Position numbers and translations under genes: made by a program
Origin: a phage
Strand: one strand, 5' to 3'
DNA length: 64,000 bases
Sequence record: OZ413487.1
Part shown: one piece after another, positions 15,010 to 31,557 of the stretch
Numbering within the stretch: the first letter of the stretch is position 1
Layout: every line of letters starts with the position of its first letter
The notes under the pieces: generated by a model
What the model saw: the letters and a program-made list of their open reading frames with translations, nothing else
The model's database searches: none
What the model was told of the DNA's origin: nothing

Positions 15010-15381
15010 ATGGAATTTATTATTTTGGCTGTAGTAGTTGCCTTGTTCAACGCCTGGATCGCTGGCAAGATAGGTAGATCCGCTTTTCTATGGTTTGTTA
15101 TATCTATTTTCCTGGGAGTGGTTGCAACTATTGTATTGGTTATCCTTGCAATTGTTGACAAGGGCGATAATAGAAAGGGTAAAGTGTTTTCCGACCTGTA
15201 TGACGCACAAACGTTTGTCAACGCCTATTATAGTGATCTTCCAGTCTCCCTACGCTGCAGCCTGGCACAACAGGTTTTTGATGAGGCTAAAACCAGAGAC
15301 CAAGCCCATGAGATATGTTTAACTGAAGCGGATCGCCTATTTGAGAGGAATAGAAAATATGTGGACCAGCCGTTTAAATAA
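15010..15381 (+). CDS. membrane protein (two TM helices)
   Basis: ATG 15010 after AAGAGG SD (track 14875); hydrophobic stretches. Confidence 0.5.
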   Translation: MEFIILAVVVALFNAWIAGKIGRSAFLWFVISIFLGVVATIVLVILAIVDKGDNRKGKVFSDLYDAQTFVNAYYSDLPVSLRCSLAQQVFDEAKTRDQAHEICLTEADRLFERNRKYVDQPFK

Positions 15382-15580
15382 CGCCACGTTAATTAATCCC
15401 TTTAGTGAAGATTTGAAGCCAGCCGCCTGGCGTGACGGATTCAATAACGAACGCTTTATTTTCAGGCCTGATCTTGAGGAATTTTATAACAATGGATCGA
15501 ACAACAGCGGAGATAATTTTTCTTGTGGTGTGCGTGGTGATAGGACTCCTGGGGGCCATTGTAAACCACGTCACTACTAA
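15359..15580 (+). CDS. hypothetical protein (doubtful)
   Basis: GAGAGGAA SD but N/G-rich low-complexity product; competing TM micro-ORF in another frame (15492..15617). Confidence 0.25.
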   Translation: MWTSRLNNATLINPFSEDLKPAAWRDGFNNERFIFRPDLEEFYNNGSNNSGDNFSCGVRGDRTPGGHCKPRHY

Positions 15581-19160: not shown

Positions 19161-19395
19161 TTTCTCCTCTTTGTCAAGTGCTGCATGAAAAATTTACAAG
19201 CTTGTATGGTAGCATTTTTGCGGCCCTGTTTACATTCAGTAATGTATGTATAATCCTTGTTGTGTGGGCGTTTAGACGTCTAGACGGTTGGAAGTCCACA
19301 GGTCAATATCTAATCTATCGGCTGCTAACTATATCCCACACAAATAGTAAGAAATATGATTGTTATATGCGTAAACTGTAACTCATGTTATCAAT

Positions 19396-19765
19396 CCCTG
19401 TATGGATCGCCAGTGGTGCGCATAATAGGTATTATGTTAAATTGCCCGTAATGATAACAGTTCTCACAATGATAGGTATTCTCATTCATCCACACAAAAT
19501 AGGTTGCAAATGTTGTGCCACTGTGTGAACGGCCTGGCCTATTAATTTCTCTCACTGCCTCGATATTTGAGAATTGTTATCCCTGTATGGATCGCCAGTG
19601 GTGCGCATAATAGGTATTATGTTAAATTGCCCGTAATGATAACAGTTCTCACAATGATAGGTATTCTCATTCATCCACACAAAATAGGTTGCAAATGTTG
19701 TGCCACTGTGTGAACGGCCTGGCCTATTAATTTCTCTCACTGCCTCGATATTTGAGAATTGTTAT
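19396..19765. repeat. perfect tandem duplication, 2 x 185 bp
   Basis: Unit ccctgtatgg...gagaattgttat at 19396-19580 repeats identically at 19581-19765. Confidence 0.85.
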
Positions 19766-21732: not shown

Positions 21733-22032
21733 CTATACCCACGAGGGCTTATCAAGGTTGGAGTAGCTGAAAGGTGTCAAAAGGTGACTGTCAAAATCTC
21801 TCAAACTATCCAAATCTTTTTCCTCGTCCTGACACCATCTGTGCCTACATTTGTTGTTGTAGTGCATGGAATGCATAGCGTTCTGCAACTTAACAGGCAC
21901 AAGTGATTCAGGAGTAGATAGTATTGTTGGGTATGCCAGAACCACCTCAAACAGTGGAAACACATCGAAACTAAAGTCTACCTCTGCAGAGGTTGATGGC
22001 ATATAGGAGTATTTAGCCGCCTTTGTAGACAT
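21733..22032 (-). CDS. hypothetical protein
   Basis: ATG 22032 after GAGGTGG SD (track 22044). Confidence 0.45.
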   Translation of the reverse strand: MSTKAAKYSYMPSTSAEVDFSFDVFPLFEVVLAYPTILSTPESLVPVKLQNAMHSMHYNNKCRHRWCQDEEKDLDSLRDFDSHLLTPFSYSNLDKPSWV

Positions 22033-22040
22033 AATCCACC

Positions 22041-22373
22041 TCACACAGGTTTGATAATACCTTCACCGAATAGCTCTTCGTATCTAATCTTGTCCGGATC
22101 CCACTCCTGTATAATTTCGAAGACAATATCCAACCCAGGAACAATCACTTCTCCAGTGTCAAGCTTAGCAAGAACAAAACCGGAAGGTTGAATGGTTTCC
22201 CAGTTACGGCGATCAGAATAAAATACTTCGAAAATATCACCAACCTCAATCCGTTTCTGTTGCTCAAGATGCTGAAGGTTCTCTTTCATACGGATGCAGC
22301 GTATTTTTCGTGCAGGCCATAGACCACCTGCATCACGTTCATTCAATTCTTTTACAGTGATCGGTATACCCAT
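22041..22373 (-). CDS. hypothetical protein
   Basis: 110 aa; GAAGGAGA SD. Confidence 0.55.
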   Translation of the reverse strand: MGIPITVKELNERDAGGLWPARKIRCIRMKENLQHLEQQKRIEVGDIFEVFYSDRRNWETIQPSGFVLAKLDTGEVIVPGLDIVFEIIQEWDPDKIRYEELFGEGIIKPV

Positions 22374-23522: not shown

Positions 23523-23810
23523 TCATAGTGCCTCTAAGATTTCATATCCTTCGGGTCGGAATACAAGCCACTCCGTGGCTCCGTTTGGTCGATACGCTTT
23601 ATACAGAACAACCTGATCTCGGCACATGCACATGGCTACATAGTTTTCATCCACACCTGCAGCCTGCATTGCATCTTCTTCTCCGGCAACCGCTTTGCTT
23701 ACAACTTCCTTGGTAGGCAGGTGTGCGATCAGCTCGTCACCATCATTAATTCCAAAATGGCTGAGTTCTCCATTGGTATCTTTGATCTTAATCTTAACCA
23801 GATCTTTCAT
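23523..23810 (-). CDS. hypothetical small acidic protein
   Basis: 95 aa; GGAGAAAG SD. Confidence 0.55.
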   Translation of the reverse strand: MKDLVKIKIKDTNGELSHFGINDGDELIAHLPTKEVVSKAVAGEEDAMQAAGVDENYVAMCMCRDQVVLYKAYRPNGATEWLVFRPEGYEILEAL

Positions 23811-24139
23811 TAGTCTTTCTCCAGGTTCAAAGGTCCTAAGATTTCATATGCCAGATTAGAAGTTACAAGAGGGTCTTCTGCGTCTTTAGTATTATACCAC
23901 CCGTGAATAACCAGAGTCCCACTTTGTTTCATGTCCAACTGTAACTCTTCTGCCGTTTCCTCATCCAGCTCCAAGATTTCCATAAGGTATTTGATGTTAG
24001 GGAGGTATGCAGCTGTTACAGTCCCCTCTACCAGACCTTCAGGCCAACCTACATCTGGATGACAAGTAGGAACCAGGTTGGTCAGCTTAATGGTGTACGC
24101 TTTTTCTGCACGAGCCTTCAGTAACGGGTCAATCTTCAT
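23810..24139 (-). CDS. hypothetical small acidic protein
   Basis: 109 aa; GAGGAGG SD; overlapping stop/start. Confidence 0.55.
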   Translation of the reverse strand: MKIDPLLKARAEKAYTIKLTNLVPTCHPDVGWPEGLVEGTVTAAYLPNIKYLMEILELDEETAEELQLDMKQSGTLVIHGWYNTKDAEDPLVTSNLAYEILGPLNLEKD

Positions 24140-24489
24140 TATTCGTCCTCCTCTTCGGTACCTGCTTCCAGTAATAAGTTAAGAATATCTTCTGCACAAG
24201 GCTCATAGAACTCTTGGCCTTCATTATCGATGATTTTATAGTCATCTCCACGAATAATCAGGGGATCACTCTCAAAATTATCGAGACCTTTAACAACGAC
24301 AACACGATCGATTGCCATCATTGTAAGAACTTTATCGACATCTTCCTCTGCTACACCATACTGCAGCAGAATGTCTTTGGTAGGAGGAACAGCATCCACC
24401 ACAACGCCGTTACCAAAACCTTCTGGAAGTTTAGCTAAAATATCTTCCGGAACCACATTCACATCAAAACCGGTAATTTCTACTTTCAT
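24139..24489 (-). CDS. hypothetical small acidic protein (family B)
   Basis: 116 aa; GAGGTG SD; MK(V/I)(E/K)... N-terminus and acidic C-terminus shared with 24490..24750 and 25914..26183. Confidence 0.55.
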   Translation of the reverse strand: MKVEITGFDVNVVPEDILAKLPEGFGNGVVVDAVPPTKDILLQYGVAEEDVDKVLTMMAIDRVVVVKGLDNFESDPLIIRGDDYKIIDNEGQEFYEPCAEDILNLLLEAGTEEEDE

Positions 24490-24750
24490 TTACAGCACCT
24501 CTTCGTCAACTACTTCATAAAAATGGCCTGGGATTGCAATAGCGTTCTCACCTTCACCTACAAACACAGTTCCGTCAAGAATCAACATCATAAGAATTTC
24601 TGTAATATCCTCTTCCGGAACGTTGCCAAAACCTTTAATCAGCTCGTAGGTTGGAATATTTACCTCTAAGATGTCACCATCTTTAGAACGGAAATCAACA
24701 CCGTCCTGAATCTCTGCCGTTTCAAGGTTTTTCAATTTAATCTTCATCAA
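24490..24750 (-). CDS. hypothetical small acidic protein (family B)
   Basis: 86 aa; CAGGAGA SD. Confidence 0.55.
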   Translation of the reverse strand: MMKIKLKNLETAEIQDGVDFRSKDGDILEVNIPTYELIKGFGNVPEEDITEILMMLILDGTVFVGEGENAIAIPGHFYEVVDEEVL

Positions 24751-24779
24751 TCGGTCTCCTGTCTTGTTAAGATGAAGGT

Positions 24780-24817
24780 ATTATTTCACACAGGGTTGGC
24801 GTTGTCAACACCTGTGT
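24780..24817 (-). promoter_or_regulatory. sigma70-like promoter flanked by inverted repeat
   Basis: Minus strand TTGACA-N17-AATAAT; inverted repeat cacacagg/cctgtgtg brackets the -35 box. Confidence 0.5.
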
Positions 24818-24826
24818 GCAAGAAAA

Positions 24827-25222
24827 TTACTGAAACAGTGCGGATAAATTACCTTCTGGTGGGAACTTATCTGCCAAAAACGGTGTTAGCACAGTAGCCC
24901 TCTGAAGATCTGGGGTCCACTCGTTGTTCAGAACATCCCAGTAGTACGCAATGTTGCTGTGTGGGTGCCGCATTACGAACTTTTTCCCTTCGTAGTCATC
25001 TGAAACCTCTACAGAAGAAATAACAACAGAATCTTCAAGGGTTTCTTCATAGAAAGATCCACCTTCAAATTTCCAACGAGATGCAAGAGCCCCTGCCTTG
25101 AACGCTGCAGATAACGGACTGTCGGCAAGAACATACATTTCTTGCACTCTGTCGCTGCGATCTTTGCTTCTTACGTTGTATACAGTATCTGAGCTATACT
25201 CAACACGGTATAGGCTTACCAT
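24827..25222 (-). CDS. hypothetical protein (family C)
   Basis: 131 aa; C-terminal region FVMRHPHSNIAYYWD..WTP aligns with FVIVHPDSRVKHYWN..WTP of 27029..27427. Confidence 0.55.
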   Translation of the reverse strand: MVSLYRVEYSSDTVYNVRSKDRSDRVQEMYVLADSPLSAAFKAGALASRWKFEGGSFYEETLEDSVVISSVEVSDDYEGKKFVMRHPHSNIAYYWDVLNNEWTPDLQRATVLTPFLADKFPPEGNLSALFQ

Positions 25223-25554
25223 TACCGAACCTCCTCAATAACTTCCACATCTGAACCTACCACAAATGCAAAAGGACAGGTTTCATGAAAGATATCCGGA
25301 TCGCCGCCAAGCTTGCTAACAATTTCTCCACCACTAATAAACACAAGCTCACCGATATTCATCAGATTGCTGAAATAGTACCCATAATGATTAAAGAATG
25401 CAGCAGGGTCAGGTAGACTAGTAGCCTCAAGCACTACATCGGTTGAGGTTACTTTCTTATCATAACCTCTCGCCTTTTGAGATGCAAGATCTGCAGAATC
25501 CTCAGGCGACCGGAGATGCACAGGAATTGTTTCACCAATAAAGCGTACTTTCAT
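25222..25554 (-). CDS. hypothetical small protein (family D)
   Basis: ATG 25554 overlapping upstream stop; MKV(R/K)(F/I/V)... family. Confidence 0.5.
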   Translation of the reverse strand: MKVRFIGETIPVHLRSPEDSADLASQKARGYDKKVTSTDVVLEATSLPDPAAFFNHYGYYFSNLMNIGELVFISGGEIVSKLGGDPDIFHETCPFAFVVGSDVEVIEEVR

Positions 25555-25558
25555 ATTA

Positions 25559-25822
25559 TCACCCAACAACCATAGCTTCAAAAGGAGTCATGAACGAATA
25601 AACGGCATCATCATCTGCTTCAGGGAATGCTCCCAAAGACTTCATATCTGAGCCCTTGACAAATACAAGGTTTTGATCAAAGGCTTCTTGGGGGTCAATC
25701 CGATACATATTTCGTAAAATATCGCTTACCTCCTCATCAAGAGGTGAGTATGCTGTGCACGTTTTTCCGATCAAGCTTTGAGAATCAGGGTATCCACCTG
25801 AAGTTTTAAAATAAACAATCAT
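25559..25822 (-). CDS. hypothetical small protein (family D-like)
   Basis: 87 aa; GAGGTGA SD. Confidence 0.5.
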   Translation of the reverse strand: MIVYFKTSGGYPDSQSLIGKTCTAYSPLDEEVSDILRNMYRIDPQEAFDQNLVFVKGSDMKSLGAFPEADDDAVYSFMTPFEAMVVG

Positions 25823-25913
25823 ATAGTATCACCTCTGGTAAGAGATTGGGACTCCTTTCCCACAAATAATTACAAATCTTCCTTAGCGAGGAAGTATGCT
25901 AATCCAAGCAGGA

Positions 25914-26183
25914 TTATTCCTCTACAATCTCATACACATCAGGAGTTACAATCAACTCTTCTCCGTTACCCGGTGCAACAAACACCACCAAACCTTCAGG
26001 TGTGTGCTTTTTAGCCATCTCGATAACATCTTCTCGCAGAGCTGGCTCCATCAGATCAAAACCTTCACCTAGGGCATCACGAACCACCTTCATATAGTCC
26101 ACTGGTTGTGCTTCAACAATCATGCCTTCAACCAGTCCACAATTTTTGTCTGCCAGCTCAGTTTGGAATAATTTAATTTTCAT
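25914..26183 (-). CDS. hypothetical small acidic protein (family B)
   Basis: 89 aa; GAGGAGA SD; hairpin downstream. Confidence 0.55.
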   Translation of the reverse strand: MKIKLFQTELADKNCGLVEGMIVEAQPVDYMKVVRDALGEGFDLMEPALREDVIEMAKKHTPEGLVVFVAPGNGEELIVTPDVYEIVEE

Positions 26184-26209
26184 TTAGAGGTCTCCTCAAT
26201 TATTTGATA

Positions 26210-26311
26210 TTAATAGCCGTAACCTAACACATTAACTACAACTGCGATTGCAAACATAATTTCAAAGCATGCAATCTCTACATTTGGGACTAATTTCTTA
26301 ATCACACCCAT
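26210..26311 (-). CDS. 33-aa hydrophobic peptide
   Basis: Below track cutoff; GGAGAATGAGGTG SD; immediately downstream of the HPF-like gene. Confidence 0.3.
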   Translation of the reverse strand: MGVIKKLVPNVEIACFEIMFAIAVVVNVLGYGY

Positions 26312-26320
26312 TGTAGCACC

Positions 26321-26638
26321 TCATTCTCCAAAGTCAATCTTTACTTTGCCTTTCCCCTTACCTTTCTTTCCACCGCATTTAGCCAGCTGACGTGCTGCAA
26401 CATCTACCATACGGTCAGTTGCCTCGTAAGCATCACTGCCTTTAGCCTTGGCAATAACTTCTTTTCCAGAATTGTCAAAAATGAACGCCATAACTTCCTG
26501 GTGATCATTTTCAACTTTTACACTCACACGTGCATAGTTGGCAGAGGGATGCAAACGCTCCAACTTAGACATTTTGTGGGAAATGAAAGACACCATACCT
26601 TCAGTGATTTCTACGTTGCCAGTGATTTCAATTTGCAT
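26321..26638 (-). CDS. ribosome hibernation promoting factor / RaiA-family homolog
   Basis: 105 aa; MQIEITGNVEITEGM...KLE...VSVKVE...ARQLAK follows E. coli HPF MQLNITGNNVEITEAL...KLE...VVLKVE...ARQLTK; K/G-rich C-terminal tail; AAGGAAC SD. Confidence 0.7.
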   Translation of the reverse strand: MQIEITGNVEITEGMVSFISHKMSKLERLHPSANYARVSVKVENDHQEVMAFIFDNSGKEVIAKAKGSDAYEATDRMVDVAARQLAKCGGKKGKGKGKVKIDFGE

Positions 26639-26685
26639 AACGTGTTCCTTTTAAAGAAGAGGGAACCGAACCCTCTTTGAAAACA

Positions 26686-26714
26686 ATGATACTAAATCTG
26701 AAGCGTTGTGTCAA
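26686..26714 (-). promoter_or_regulatory. sigma70-like promoter upstream of HPF-like gene
   Basis: Minus strand TTGACA-N17-TATCAT; 5' UTR contains hairpin aagaggg-ttcggtt-ccctctt. Confidence 0.5.
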
Positions 26715-26720
26715 CAGTTT

Positions 26721-27011
26721 TTACAGATTGTTGTCGATAGTTTTTAAAATATCCACAGCAAGATCTGCCATTTTTCGAACATACTCTGCAAACTCAACAG
26801 GATCCTTGATCAAAGAATTCACAGGGTCGTACCCTAGAGCGTTCAAAATGGCTGCAGCATCTACAACCTTCTCATCATTTGCGAAGATCTCTCCATCAAA
26901 CTTGTAGGTCCATTTTGAGTCAATCTTGGCAGGGAATGATTGGTCAACGCTTGTTACACCATCCTTTTTAAACGCTCCGGTGTTATCAGTGTCTAGAACT
27001 AAATCCATCAT
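26721..27011 (-). CDS. hypothetical protein
   Basis: 96 aa; GGTGAGGT SD. Confidence 0.5.
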   Translation of the reverse strand: MMDLVLDTDNTGAFKKDGVTSVDQSFPAKIDSKWTYKFDGEIFANDEKVVDAAAILNALGYDPVNSLIKDPVEFAEYVRKMADLAVDILKTIDNNL

Positions 27012-27028
27012 GTTAGTACCTCACCGTT

Positions 27029-27427
27029 TCAGTTTAGCTTTTCTTCAACAACCCCATAGCTCGGGACAGAGTCAAGAGCTTTCTGGTTTAAAAGTGGTGT
27101 AGCAGAATCTGCAAACGGTGTCCAAGTTTTTGTTCTGGCGTTCCAGTAATGCTTCACTCTGGAATCTGGATGCACTATAACAAAAACTTTTTCACTTGTC
27201 AACACATTAATTTCTTCCACACCCCTGCTGATAATTTCTCCGTCATATCCCCCGGTCTGGTATCCTTCGTACCAGGTTCTTGCATAGGCATAGCCAGCCT
27301 GCCAGCATGCAGCCTCCTCCGAGGTGGAGACTACGTAGAAGTCTTTCTCAAATTCTGGGATACGCCCTTGCTTTACGCTCCAAGCTCCGCGAATTTTCAT
27401 TGTAACTTTGAATAGTTTATTTTTCAC
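27029..27427 (-). CDS. hypothetical protein (family C)
   Basis: 132 aa; GTG start; paralog of 24827..25222. Confidence 0.55.
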   Translation of the reverse strand: MKNKLFKVTMKIRGAWSVKQGRIPEFEKDFYVVSTSEEAACWQAGYAYARTWYEGYQTGGYDGEIISRGVEEINVLTSEKVFVIVHPDSRVKHYWNARTKTWTPFADSATPLLNQKALDSVPSYGVVEEKLN

Positions 27428-27439
27428 AACGGTTACCCA

Positions 27440-27694
27440 TCACAGTTCTACAATATCTGCATCTGACCCTGCCCCAAAGGCATAATAGGACTCTTCCCCG
27501 AAATAATATTCCGGTGCACCAGCAGCGATCAGGTCTGATCCCAAAATGAATACCACGTTGTGGCCTACATAGCTGTGATTTTGCCGCACAGGATCATCCC
27601 ACGGCAACCCTTCGAAGTATACCGCAGGGACGACCTTTCCTTTCAGGAAGGATTGCCCCAAGTAGACGTTAGAATCAAGAATTTTAACCTTCAT
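27440..27694 (-). CDS. hypothetical small protein (family D)
   Basis: 84 aa; MKVKILDS...LIAAGA motif; GGAGGACG SD. Confidence 0.55.
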   Translation of the reverse strand: MKVKILDSNVYLGQSFLKGKVVPAVYFEGLPWDDPVRQNHSYVGHNVVFILGSDLIAAGAPEYYFGEESYYAFGAGSDADIVEL

Positions 27695-27908
27695 GATCGT
27701 CCTCCACTATCTCTACATCCTCACCTAGGGCAAAGTTGTAGGTCCACTGACTGTCAAAGCATTCCTGAGATGCACCAGCGGCAATAAGATCTGCCCCTTT
27801 TATTTTTAAAAGGTCAGGGTAATCTTCGTTAGGGACAGCAGTAAACACTTTCCCTACTAAAGGCTCCTGACCAATATAGAAGCTTGAATCTAAAACTTTA
27901 ACTTTCAT
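27684..27908 (-). CDS. hypothetical small protein (family D)
   Basis: ATG 27908 (ATGA coupling); MKVKVLDS...DLIAAGA. Confidence 0.55.
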   Translation of the reverse strand: MKVKVLDSSFYIGQEPLVGKVFTAVPNEDYPDLLKIKGADLIAAGASQECFDSQWTYNFALGEDVEIVEDDHEG

Positions 27909-28195
27909 CAACGGTCTCCATCAGGTGGTTGTGGGACGTAAACACTGTTACGAATATCGTCCGCAGTATAGTAATAAGTGTCTCCAACCCTATCTCTGGC
28001 TGCAATGTACTCTGCTATACCAATAAGTGCCATTGATTTGGTGGCGTATCTTCCCCACTCGTTAGCTCCCCAGTAGAATTTAGACCAGTAGGGAATAATA
28101 CCGAACAAATATACCTTTTGACGAACTTCCCAGTAAGTGCCTTTTCCGACAAGTTTAAACTCTACTTCACTACTGTTAATCTTTTTCATTATCAA
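27908..28195 (-). CDS. hypothetical protein
   Basis: 95 aa; GAGGGAG SD. Confidence 0.5.
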   Translation of the reverse strand: MIMKKINSSEVEFKLVGKGTYWEVRQKVYLFGIIPYWSKFYWGANEWGRYATKSMALIGIAEYIAARDRVGDTYYYTADDIRNSVYVPQPPDGDR

Positions 28196-28488
28196 TCTCC
28201 CTCTACCGTGGTCGGATTGTCAGTAAGAAATTGAGCATTGGCTGGAGGCACGCCTGACATTTTCCACACAACCATAAGTTTGTAACCAGGAACTCTATTA
28301 AGTGCAGATCGAGTAGAGTTTGTGCACGTATACTTTCGCTTTCCAAACCCGTTCTCCATCATAATCCAGTACCCAGTATCTTTGTCACCAGGTATCGGTA
28401 GACCACCTTCATCAACCCACTGAATGGACCACGGCACGATGGCTACAGCTTTATATTTAAACTTTTTAAACCACTCAAAAAGTTTCAT
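28192..28488 (-). CDS. hypothetical protein
   Basis: 98 aa; GCGAGGCTG SD. Confidence 0.5.
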   Translation of the reverse strand: MKLFEWFKKFKYKAVAIVPWSIQWVDEGGLPIPGDKDTGYWIMMENGFGKRKYTCTNSTRSALNRVPGYKLMVVWKMSGVPPANAQFLTDNPTTVEGD

Positions 28489-28491
28489 AAT

Positions 28492-28581
28492 TCAGCCTCG
28501 CATAGACATAATCACTATAAACAGGCAAACAATGAATCCGAATGCCACGCCACCCATAAACGTTAATATTGATGCAATCAT
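28492..28581 (-). CDS. 29-aa hydrophobic peptide
   Basis: Below track cutoff; GCGAGGCTG SD; stop overlaps next start. Confidence 0.3.
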   Translation of the reverse strand: MIASILTFMGGVAFGFIVCLFIVIMSMRG

Positions 28582-28583
28582 AG

Positions 28584-28769
28584 TCAATCAGCCTCGCTTG
28601 GCAACTCTTCTACCTTAACATGCCGAAAAGTGTTACCGTAATGGTTGATCCATGACATCAGCTCGCTTTCTTGCTCTTCCTCTGGGATGAACTCTCGAAT
28701 GCTGACAAGTTTTAAGAAAACCCAATCACAATCTGCACCCATTCTACCAGACAGGCAATAGTGCTTCAT
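28584..28769 (-). CDS. hypothetical protein
   Basis: 61-aa track ORF. Confidence 0.4.
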   Translation of the reverse strand: MKHYCLSGRMGADCDWVFLKLVSIREFIPEEEQESELMSWINHYGNTFRHVKVEELPSEAD

Positions 28770-28787
28770 AAAAACCCCCCGCCTGGT

Positions 28788-28982
28788 TTAGAATATTGCT
28801 TCTTCCATTGCACCTGAGAGCAACAAAGAGGTGATCTGGCTAACATTCATCTCAGACTCTACTTCCTCCCCTTTGAAAGGTTCGCGGCAGAATAGGACTG
28901 TTTCAGGACTTTTACTTCGAACAATATAATACAAATCATTCAATGTGTTGTAGTAATAAGTGTTAAAACGTAAGTTTTTCAT
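28788..28982 (-). CDS. hypothetical protein
   Basis: 64 aa; AAGGGGA SD. Confidence 0.45.
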   Translation of the reverse strand: MKNLRFNTYYYNTLNDLYYIVRSKSPETVLFCREPFKGEEVESEMNVSQITSLLLSGAMEEAIF

Positions 28983-29266
28983 TTTCTAGTCCCCTTCTTA
29001 GATTTTTGTGTAGAAACGCTTTCTGCAATACGAGACAAACGTTCTTCTGAAGCCTTGCCTATTCCAGGTTTTTTGAGTGGGTTATCTTTATGACCACAAT
29101 CCAATTGGATATTGGATACCTCTCCAACCTTGTAAGTCAATTCTAGCAAAAGGTTGTCGTCCTTGTCAAATGTTCTTACGATAAATTTTTTATCGTTCTC
29201 CTGAACTTCGTATCGGGTACCCGCAGTATACAGCATGGTGCCATCCGCATAGGATATCCAGATCAT
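28979..29266 (-). CDS. hypothetical protein
   Basis: 95 aa; GAAGGAGG SD. Confidence 0.5.
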   Translation of the reverse strand: MIWISYADGTMLYTAGTRYEVQENDKKFIVRTFDKDDNLLLELTYKVGEVSNIQLDCGHKDNPLKKPGIGKASEERLSRIAESVSTQKSKKGTRK

Positions 29267-29610
29267 TGAACCTCCTTCTGCTGCAACAGCATTAACTCTT
29301 TGTTGGAGATTTTTACTGCTGTTTTTATTGTTCCATCTTCACGAAACCACGACCAGAACTCTACAGTGTCCCCACTGTCAAGCAAAGCATACCCGTGGTA
29401 GAAGTCTTTGTCCTTAGACAGTTTCTCATCTATGTCTGCATCGACACATTCGTGATCCATAGCATTTTGCCTGAATGCATCGGTTATACCAATGCACGCC
29501 TTGCTCTCAAGACTGGTATATCCGATATCTTTTAATTCAGTTTCCCAAGTCCAGTACCCTATAAAAGCTAAAACAGCTACCCACATTAATAACGTTTTAA
29601 TCTTTGGCAT
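29263..29610 (-). CDS. putative secreted/membrane-anchored protein
   Basis: 115 aa; N-terminal hydrophobic segment; AGAGGTAGAGAG SD. Confidence 0.5.
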   Translation of the reverse strand: MPKIKTLLMWVAVLAFIGYWTWETELKDIGYTSLESKACIGITDAFRQNAMDHECVDADIDEKLSKDKDFYHGYALLDSGDTVEFWSWFREDGTIKTAVKISNKELMLLQQKEVQ

Positions 29611-29672
29611 TCTCTCTACCTCTTTCTTAGTTTATTTCACTATGGCACATCCTTTGTGCCATATCTCAACCA

Positions 29673-30134
29673 CTACTTAAATAGTAGTCCAAAATAGTGC
29701 AAAATTAACAGAAGTTGAACTACACCTAGTGCAACGGCGAGTATGTTAATCTTAGAATCGAAAAACTTCTTAACTTTTACTCTAAAAGGTTCCTTAATGT
29801 CCTTTACGATCCTATTTATAGATGATTTCATATCCCTGATTACCATCCTAAACATTAGAGACGGATCTTCCTTCTCTGTAATAGAATCGAAAACATACTC
29901 TCTTCGGTCATAAGGACCTCCAGATCTGCGTATTAACCTCTCCACAGAGACCTCGTACGACACACCTGTAACGTAATCATCTATGATAAGTAGTGACGGG
30001 TCTTTATCGTCCAAGGGTATTAAAGTTATCTTTCCAGATTTTGTTAAAATTTCTCCTTTTTCAAGCAAGGTGTACCAATGCTCTCTACCAAGATTGTTGA
30101 GGCACGTTTTTACATATTTAACAAACATCGTCAC
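29673..30134 (-). CDS. hypothetical protein with C-terminal TM helix
   Basis: 153 aa; GAGGGGTG SD. Confidence 0.5.
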   Translation of the reverse strand: MTMFVKYVKTCLNNLGREHWYTLLEKGEILTKSGKITLIPLDDKDPSLLIIDDYVTGVSYEVSVERLIRRSGGPYDRREYVFDSITEKEDPSLMFRMVIRDMKSSINRIVKDIKEPFRVKVKKFFDSKINILAVALGVVQLLLILHYFGLLFK

Positions 30135-30334
30135 CCCTCATCGCACGTCTGATATAACCACTCTATGAAATCTTGATACCATTCGCCCTCTGAGCGCTCC
30201 GTAGGCCAATAATCTTCACCCTCTCGTGCATTAAAATCTGAGTATTCAACTTTCCACTCCTTTACCAGCTCGTGGAGAAGGTTTTCAGCCTGCTCTAAAG
30301 ATTTATTTTTTGCCATTGCTGTCTCCTTTTTCAA
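30131..30334 (-). CDS. hypothetical protein
   Basis: 67 aa; AAAGGAGA SD. Confidence 0.5.
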   Translation of the reverse strand: MKKETAMAKNKSLEQAENLLHELVKEWKVEYSDFNAREGEDYWPTERSEGEWYQDFIEWLYQTCDEG

Positions 30335-30399
30335 GATAGTTATACATCAGAACTGCACCACCTAAGATGGCTACCAGTAACAATATCCCAGATAGCATC

Positions 30400-30552
30400 T
30401 CAATAAACATGGCTTGAAACACTGGAAGGTCTCCCTAAATTAACGCACCATTTTAAATACATGCTCTTTTCCCATAAAGGTGCCTGGCTAAGATCTGCGT
30501 AGAACGCAATCTCTTTAAGAACAGTATAGATAGTTTTAGGTGCGGTCTCCAT
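30400..30552 (-). CDS. hypothetical protein (doubtful)
   Basis: ATG 30552 after AGGAAGGAGAG SD (track 30588); overlaps a competing micro-ORF. Confidence 0.3.
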   Translation of the reverse strand: METAPKTIYTVLKEIAFYADLSQAPLWEKSMYLKWCVNLGRPSSVSSHVY

Positions 30553-30763
30553 CCCTACTCTCCTTCCTGATATTCTTGTAGTAATCAACTAGGCACATTG
30601 TTACGATGAAGATAACAACAGGCCAAAAAGGTGCAGCAGTGATGATGGTGATAAAATCATCAAACTTCACCCTTCGTCTGGACACGATGCATACACCTGT
30701 CAAGAATGCCGCTGTTATAACGGACATTACCAGGTAACCTATTAGCACAACATTTATACTCAT
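30536..30763 (-). CDS. small two-TM membrane protein (holin-like topology)
   Basis: 75 aa; two hydrophobic helices plus charged C-terminus; AGGGAGG SD. Confidence 0.5.
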   Translation of the reverse strand: MSINVVLIGYLVMSVITAAFLTGVCIVSRRRVKFDDFITIITAAPFWPVVIFIVTMCLVDYYKNIRKESRDGDRT

Positions 30764-30793
30764 TGGTCCTCCCTTTGTAGGTTAAATTGTATA

Positions 30794-31318
30794 CTACAAA
30801 TGGTCGCTGAGGGTGTCAAGAAAATTATCCCGTTCTTTCTCAGAGTTTTCATGTGTGTAGCTGAAAAACATATCGAGAATAACCTTATTGATATATTCCA
30901 GCTCCTCTGTGTTCAGATGCTTAGCAGGATCTACAATGACATCCCAAATATCATACAGACCACACTCATGATACCCATAACGCCACTCAATTGTCAAGCT
31001 GAGCGGCAAATCTTTACCTTCACAAACAACCTTCCATCTACATATGTTGGTATCTGGTCGTACCTGTGCACGGTACACCTGCACAAAATCCAATTTGAAT
31101 TTGAGGTACTCGTCATACAATTTAAGCACAAAGCTCTCGATTTGTGGAGACACTTTTGCAGCAAACTGTGCGTATTTGTACTTGCACTGGATGATCTTTC
31201 TACGTTTTGCAGTTAAATTTTTTGCCGCCAGTTGTTCTTCAGTGTATCTCCACCTACGATCAACAAACGCAACAGGGTCTTTGTCCCCATAGAGGTCTTC
31301 CCAGTTAATCAGAAGCAT
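30794..31318 (-). CDS. hypothetical protein
   Basis: ATG 31318 after GGAGGAG SD (track 31327). Confidence 0.55.
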   Translation of the reverse strand: MLLINWEDLYGDKDPVAFVDRRWRYTEEQLAAKNLTAKRRKIIQCKYKYAQFAAKVSPQIESFVLKLYDEYLKFKLDFVQVYRAQVRPDTNICRWKVVCEGKDLPLSLTIEWRYGYHECGLYDIWDVIVDPAKHLNTEELEYINKVILDMFFSYTHENSEKERDNFLDTLSDHL

Positions 31319-31323
31319 ACCTG

Positions 31324-31557
31324 TCACTCCTCCACAACTTCAAGGCCTTTACCGCCTCGCTCTGGCAGATTACTTAAAGATAGGTAATACATATAATCAG
31401 GAGAGATCCTGCCAGACTCTGCACCTGCAGCTAGTAAATCCTTCCCTTTAACCAGGACAACATTCTCGTTTGCAGATAGCCGTTTTGCTTCCACAATTTT
31501 ACCAACACAGTCAACCAAGGAAGGGTACCCTAAATCTGTAAGAAATTTAACTTTCAT
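31324..31557 (-). CDS. hypothetical small protein (family D)
   Basis: 77 aa; MKVKFL...DLLAAGA; GGTAGGAGG SD. Confidence 0.55.
   Translation of the reverse strand: MKVKFLTDLGYPSLVDCVGKIVEAKRLSANENVVLVKGKDLLAAGAESGRISPDYMYYLSLSNLPERGGKGLEVVEE

Follow-up and report, generated by a model that had tools for sequence, protein, structure and literature searches.

What relates the small acidic proteins that a Vequintavirus genome encodes in tandem on one strand, and what could they do during infection? The question is raised by positions 23523–31557 of a 64,000-nucleotide stretch of phage DNA (sequence record OZ413487.1), hereafter the window, for which an initial annotation, made from the letters alone, had proposed at least three families of paralogous small proteins and had read them as a rapidly evolving host-interaction or anti-defence locus. 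The analysis described here finds twelve such genes in three old families, B (five genes), C (two) and D (five), all on the minus strand. All twelve are dispensable on Escherichia coli K-12 and conserved under selection, and four of them are conditionally required on one clinical strain. With modest confidence we favour their being host-specific accessory factors that would serve counter-defence or host takeover by binding through the surface of a small β-barrel.

The 9-kb region that holds these genes shares 99.4% identity with Escherichia phage JohannBauhin (Bas53), which places it in the genus Vequintavirus (rV5-like), and over 110 further rV5-like phages match it at 90–99%. Phages of this genus have a broad host range and are candidates for therapy; about two thirds of their genes lack a known function, and multi-copy families of small accessory genes are a familiar feature of the early regions of large virulent phages. 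In JohannBauhin all genes from bas53_0142 to bas53_0169 are labelled hypothetical save a ribosome hibernation factor (HPF) and a "putative glycosidase". They belong to a long minus-strand block delimited by GC skew flips at ~21 kb and ~58 kb, and the three families account for 12 of the ~27 genes between 23523 and 31557. Every gene named by the initial annotation is present on this strand at the position reported there, and all are annotated coding sequences in JohannBauhin.

Two of the three families were already known as groups without function in the PHROGs database. New are the five-member extent of B, the predicted SH3-like fold of B and D with their possible unity, the repeated D-D-C gene order, a wider D family, whose arrays and multi-repeat fusions occur in unrelated phages, and the link to a transposon phenotype left undiscussed by its source. 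About a dozen function-less genes thereby gain a family structure and ten of them a predicted fold, and C1, D1, D2 and C2 become tied to a host-specific fitness phenotype that the source paper does not discuss.

Three families of paralogous small proteins

The 145 non-overlapping open reading frames (ORFs) of the window were translated and compared all against all by BLASTP. Family D comprises D1 (25222–25554, 110 residues), D2 (25559–25822, 87 residues), D3 (27440–27694, 84 residues), D4 (27684–27908, 74 residues) and D5 (31324–31557, 77 residues). D3 and D4 match each other at E=3e-14 and D4 and D5 at E=5e-6, while the two divergent members, D2 with an insert and D1 with a large one, stay at E ~1e-2. 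A D-core hidden Markov model (HMM), trained only on the three clear members and on homologues from outside Vequintavirus, retrieves D1 (E=2e-5) and D2 (E=4e-5), the next ORF being at E=0.3; after enlargement of the profile with 67 outside sequences the same two genes score E=4e-10 and 2e-15, respectively. The five members first proposed are thus borne out by BLASTP and by an independent HMM. The family profile spans ~70 residues (MKVK.L ... GK.v.A ... G.(D/E)LI..GA ... Y.F ... E(V/I)VE). The motif MKVK.L...DL(I/L)AAGA is literal in D3, D4 and D5 only and diverges in D2 (MIVYFK..GSDMKSLGA) and in D1 (MKVRFIG..GGEIVSKLGG).

Family C is the pair C1 (24827–25222, 131 residues) and C2 (27029–27427, 132 residues from a GTG start, or 123 from the annotated ATG at 27400). 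The core suggested for it holds, as HP.S, YW and WTP are invariant in the C1/C2 alignment and both proteins match phrog_7379 over its full length (1–131), with E=5e-66 for C1 and 1.5e-73 for C2. A link between C and D was considered and rejected (hhalign P=0.41). The C profile also touches the ORF at 15341–15580 (P=7e-4), over 24 residues only.

Family B had been given three members, B3 (24139–24489, 116 residues, isoelectric point (pI) 4.05, with an acidic C-terminal tail), B4 (24490–24747, 85 residues, pI 4.1) and B5 (25914–26183, 89 residues, pI 4.3). These are indeed related, but the count is five: B1 (23523–23810, 95 residues, pI 4.7) and B2 (23810–24139, 109 residues, pI 4.5) had been missed. 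Pairwise similarity is weaker in B than in D, and it was a MAFFT alignment that brought in both genes downstream of B3 and gave the pattern MKIKL .. G.v.A..PT .. EED .. G.vv .. N .. YEIve. In leave-one-out HMMs the omitted B gene was the top non-training match among the 145 ORFs every time (B1, E=8e-6; B2, 9e-4; B3, 1e-5; B4, 2e-2; B5, 5e-5), with the next unrelated ORF between 0.025 and 1.1 and B4 as the weakest member. The similarities therefore go beyond composition bias; the families are real, and B had been understated. The description of the proteins as acidic fits 11 of the 12 (pI 4.05–5.4), C2 being the exception with a pI of 7.8.

In PHROGs, D3, D4 and D5 (E=1e-32 to 1e-39, with 5e-32 for D3) fall in phrog_5009, which D2 matches weakly (1e-4), and C1 and C2 in phrog_7379, both groups of unknown function. 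D1 (phrog_13661), D2 (phrog_13920) and the five B genes (five phrogs) are placed in separate singleton-type families, likewise of unknown function, so that the five-member extent of both D and B was uncatalogued. No Pfam family, SH3 and KOW included, matches any of the ten B/C/D proteins scanned at E<=1, and in a scan of these ten and ten neighbours HPF gave the sole match.

Gene order and probable coupling

Read in the direction of transcription, the genes begin with D5 and a 177-residue gene, followed after an interval by a 93-residue gene, D4, D3, C2, a 96-residue gene, HPF, B5, D2, D1, C1, B4, B3, B2 and B1. The succession D-D-C is therefore present twice, as D4-D3-C2 and as D2-D1-C1. Seven junctions have gaps of −11 to +4 nucleotides: 0, −1 and −1 in the tight array opened by B4 (B4/B3/B2/B1, B2 overlapping B1 and B3 by 1 nucleotide each), 4 and −1 in D2/D1/C1, −11 at D4/D3, where the two genes overlap, and −4 between D5 and the 177-residue gene. 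In many of the genes the terminal Glu-Glu codons (GAGGAG) occupy the expected Shine-Dalgarno position of the next gene. At the junctions 25222, 24139, 24489, 27694 and 31327, the codons for the conserved acidic C-termini (..EVVEE, ..EEEDE) are of the GAGGAG type and form the Shine-Dalgarno sequence of the following gene, and such a dual coding constraint may help to keep the tails acidic. The translational coupling noted initially is consistent with both the short gaps and the Shine-Dalgarno sequences inside upstream gene ends, and the genes are probably co-translated, to judge from their arrangement.

This packing bears on a trivial explanation, namely that the resemblance reflects composition, or terminal signals common to the genes (the MK start, and the acidic EE end that also serves as a ribosome-binding site), and not common descent, or that the ORFs are non-functional. 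The coincidence of C-terminal Glu-Glu codons with the next Shine-Dalgarno sequence does inflate C-terminal likeness, notably between B and D: the acidic C-terminus is partly a constraint at the nucleotide level and hence weaker evidence for B–D homology. Within each family, composition is excluded by shuffle controls, leave-one-out profiles and the window-wide background, and the substitution ratios, the confident structure models and the transposon phenotypes presented below speak against the same explanation. It is thus extremely improbable and, within families, already refuted; it remains a caveat for the B–D link only.

Conservation within Vequintavirus

Comparison with six divergent Vequintavirus genomes (Bas54, ECP32, EcoIv14a_Aya, HMD-6, YP-6 and FV3) showed each family member present once and in the same order. 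Amino-acid identity is 80–100% and the ratio of nonsynonymous to synonymous substitution rates (dN/dS) is 0.03–0.13, which indicates selection on the proteins and resembles the values of neighbouring genes (ClpP 0.04, PhoH 0.02, HPF 0.03). The idea of a rapidly evolving locus is not supported by these figures, and copy number is constant, at five D, five B and two C genes, in eight genomes. The D paralogues each have a closer relative outside the genus (D5 47%, D3 44% and D1 54%), D5 being nearest to homologues in temperate mEp021-type phages, and this indicates that the paralogues are old and individually conserved. The sequence comparison thus describes old paralogues, individually maintained under purifying selection.

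The only change in copy number found is a fusion of D4 and D3 into one 70-residue gene in three independent metagenome assemblies; it was not found in GenBank phages. The crossover lies at GCTGGTGCA, a 9-nucleotide microhomology that encodes the shared AGA motif. An assembly artefact was considered and rejected, given that the longest exact match between D3 and D4 is 11 nucleotides, seemingly too short, and that the three samples are independent. A 98-residue metagenome protein (P0090) bears on the B array: its C-terminal half is that of the B2 orthologue, while its N-terminal half (PF24132 in a precomputed Pfam annotation) is unrelated, which suggests recombination inside this array in some relatives.

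The variable genes of the block lie outside the families. Compared with other Vequintaviruses, identity is 76% for the gene at 27908–28195, 62–66% for 28192–28488, 54–57% for 30536–30763 and 51% for the "putative glycosidase" at 30794–31327; the genes at 27908–28488 and 30536–31327 look like allelic replacements.

Requirement on a clinical host

Phenotypes for the orthologues are available from a HIDEN-SEQ preprint, in which Bas54 (phage MaxBurger) was subjected to transposon-insertion sequencing (Tn-seq; bioRxiv 10.1101/2025.11.20.689424). Bas54 genes could be mapped to those of the window at 95–100% amino-acid identity: B1 to B4 correspond to bas54_0146, bas54_0147, bas54_0148 and bas54_0149, C1 to bas54_0150, D1 to bas54_0151, D2 to bas54_0152, B5 to bas54_0153, C2 to bas54_0157, D3 to bas54_0158, D4 to bas54_0159 and D5 to bas54_0166. 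On K-12 all twelve orthologues are classed as "Non-essential" or "Intermediate" in the supplement, the latter being 0151–0153 with 69–73% of TA sites hit (bioRxiv 10.1101/2025.11.20.689424).

On the uropathogenic E. coli strain CFE311 the picture changes for part of the set. Compared with K-12, zero reads were obtained for 0150 (C1), 0151 (D1) and 0152 (D2), with log2 fold changes of −6.77, −6.17 and −7.16, respectively, and 0157 (C2) dropped 4.4-fold (log2 fold change −2.14); the adjusted p is reported as 0 for these four genes. The ~7-fold drop of 0153 (B5) was not significant, and 0146–0149, 0158, 0159 and 0166 were unchanged (bioRxiv 10.1101/2025.11.20.689424). Both C paralogues therefore score on CFE311, and since the downstream 0149 is unaffected the requirement can be placed within D2-D1-C1. 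C1, D1, D2 and C2 are thus dispensable on a permissive host and needed on CFE311, a pattern that counter-defence genes could give; for such genes the phenotype would also map to a defined defence system.

A counterpart for which such a role is established lies close by. The gene corresponding to bas54_0140 (window 21733–22044, 99% identity) shares the minus-strand accessory block with the families, at ~1.5 kb on the downstream side of B1, and in that experiment it resembled C1, D1, D2 and C2 in being non-essential on K-12 but depleted on CFE311. Unlike for them, its phenotype was confirmed by a clean knockout and it is needed against the predicted system DS-28 of CFE311; in sequence it is unrelated to the three families. 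The view of the locus as a host-interaction or anti-defence array accordingly stands as far as tight tandem arrangement of diversified paralogues in an accessory block and conditional requirement of four of them are concerned; an anti-defence role is a proposal for every member.

Predicted folds and proposed role

One AlphaFold2 model was calculated for each of the two larger families, D5 from an alignment of 22 D sequences and B5 from an alignment of 29 B sequences. Both models are confident, with a predicted local distance difference test (pLDDT) score of 95.1 for D and 92.2 for B, and both are predicted SH3-like small β-barrels, a fold known from SH3, KOW, the PhnA C-terminal domain, PsaE and OapB. 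The strand order is β1-β2-[insert site]-β3-β4-β5 in the two cases. At the insert site, between strands 2 and 3, B carries ~30 helical residues, and it is there too that D1, D2 and D3 are extended by inserts; in the predicted models, B and D thus agree in fold and topology and have inserts at one loop.

A search of the D model against predicted viral structures (BFVD) gave as top match an 87-residue protein of Shigella phage CM1, a Vequintavirus, with a template modeling (TM) score of 0.72; its length equals that of D2. The next matches include RB49 Q76ZG7, Shigella phage Sf20 A0A2K9VNT9 and Escherichia phage SRT8 A0A2D1GP41 (Foldseek E=2e-3 to 2e-2, TM 0.6–0.7), small uncharacterised proteins of virulent enterobacterial phages whose homology to D is unproven. 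Among solved structures, PDB sequence profiles match none of B, C and D.

In the scenario that we favour, D and B (74–116 residues, mostly acidic) would each be single SH3-like barrels whose surface binds host or defence proteins. Each conserved paralogue would have its own target, and the D and C products of one cassette may act together. The D2-D1-C1 cassette and partly C2 would in this way be needed for growth of Bas54 on CFE311. Small acidic barrels of this kind suggest, at the level of the models, protein binding over catalysis or nucleic-acid binding. This last distinction separates the proposal from one in which the proteins mimic nucleic acids or act as regulators that bind them, whether DNA-mimic inhibitors of restriction or of nucleic-acid sensing or RNA-binding barrels like OapB or Sm. 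Such roles appear very unlikely: no sequence or fold similarity was found to DNA mimics, anti-CRISPRs or anti-restriction proteins with solved structures, the top fold matches being generic SH3, single barrels of 75 residues are much smaller than known DNA mimics, and the acidity argues against direct contact with nucleic acid.

Several points weigh against the accessory-factor proposal. Eight of the 12 genes (B1–B5 and D3–D5) have no significant depletion on CFE311, the sole clinical host documented. In supplement file 9 (Data S6/S7) the sheet "resampling_K-12_vs_CFE303" is the CFE311 sheet, as judged from its console command (B54_2_311 wig) and from its values over comparable rows, so that only a single clinical host is on record. 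The follow-up in the preprint, knockout constructs included, concerned bas54_0063 and bas54_0140 only (counter-defence against DS-28), and 0150–0152 and 0157 are left undiscussed (bioRxiv 10.1101/2025.11.20.689424); no functional studies of these genes were found in the literature besides HIDEN-SEQ. Nor was a transcriptome found there for Vequintavirus, and from the strand and the sigma-70-like promoters we infer the early timing of the block. The profile comparison between B and D is weak as well (hhalign P=4e-4 to 1.5e-3, probability 17–36%), the local alignment covering the N-terminal 28 columns only. With the enlarged D profile the link stays at a probability of 35%, and among 118 ORFs from outside family D that were scored with the D profile, B members took the first and third places, though at P=0.006–0.017. 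For this reason we regard it as plausible, but unproven, that B and D descend from one ancestor.

A final point of this kind concerns polarity. As D2, D1 and C1 are co-directional and coupled, polarity onto C1 is possible and could account for the depletion of D2 and D1. From this follows the main rival explanation, in which only family C drives the CFE311 phenotype and the D and B barrels serve phage development in another, more general way, for example as KOW/Tudor-like adaptors on host RNA polymerase or ribosomes. The HPF gene embedded in the array would fit such a role. We regard it as unlikely, since all twelve genes are dispensable on K-12, no KOW or other Pfam match was obtained, a pI of 4–5 fits nucleic-acid binding poorly, and the authors of the preprint describe polar effects as uncommon and insertions upstream of essential genes as usually tolerated (bioRxiv 10.1101/2025.11.20.689424).

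Distribution of the families

In a word-indexed search of 5.8 billion proteins, B and C gave Vequintavirus orthologues only. Family D is wider: when 1.84 billion representative proteins were searched exhaustively with its profile, 93 clusters were returned at E<=1e-3, most of them of 63–90 residues and matched over their full length. D is present as a single copy between the Q antiterminator and the lysis genes in the temperate phages mEp021, mEp013 and mEp554 (an accessory region in mEp021), and homologues are also seen among E. coli proteins, where they probably derive from related prophages.

In some of the proteins the D domain is repeated in tandem, two or three times (P0099, P0100, P0129, P0138, P0152 and P0171) and one match is fused to DUF3310. 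Arrays of separate genes were seen in three viral contigs of IMG/VR, one with three tandem copies (L013), one with five copies flanking both sides of a large DNA-polymerase-like ORF, named by eye (L014), and one with two D genes, including a two-domain gene (L015). By gene content, tandem expansion is therefore a recurrent property of the D family.

A more far-reaching reading is that B and D form one unrecognised SH3-like superfamily of phage "adaptors", with ten genes in this block and repeated tandem expansion in unrelated phages, and that D-D-C is a multi-protein counter-measure against an immunity or host factor of CFE311 distinct from DS-28. We put this forward as a tentative and somewhat unlikely idea. 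If the barrels are modular binders of host proteins, the D family with its 93 clusters would offer a new class of phage host-interaction genes that can be searched for; if they are not, the locus would be an ordinary case of conserved accessory paralogues.

In the neighbourhood of two D genes, the gene next to D5 (30794–31327) and mEp021_39 (L002 4771–5004), which lies next to the D homologue of mEp021, share the motif Y-x-Y-H-E-C-G. The stretch comprises 7 residues (E=0.005 in a single comparison) and may be due to chance.

Putative expression signals and neighbouring features

A consensus scan of the interval between 20 and 36 kb gave seven matches to the sigma-70 promoter at 11 of 12 positions, all on the minus strand and three of them intergenic. 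One such pattern match (24780–24808, minus strand; TTGACA-17-AATAAT with TG; 11/12) lies in the gap between C1 and B4, just upstream of B4. The same kind of scan placed a terminator-like hairpin, again a pattern match, at 25878–25894 on the minus strand, between B5 and D2.

The HPF gene (26321–26638; Pfam Ribosomal_S30AE, E=2e-12) lies at mid-array, with one D-D-C group on either side, and in Bas54 it is non-essential on K-12 and on CFE311. Bas54 is without the whole stretch corresponding to ~28192–30134. Outside the array, positions 19394–19763 hold a perfect 185-nucleotide tandem duplication, whose two 100%-identical copies give two identical ORFs of 54 residues; it lies inside an AT-rich divergent intergenic region of ~2 kb that contains no tRNA genes. 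The equivalent of this region in Bas54 (bas54_0134-0135) received zero transposon insertions (bioRxiv 10.1101/2025.11.20.689424).

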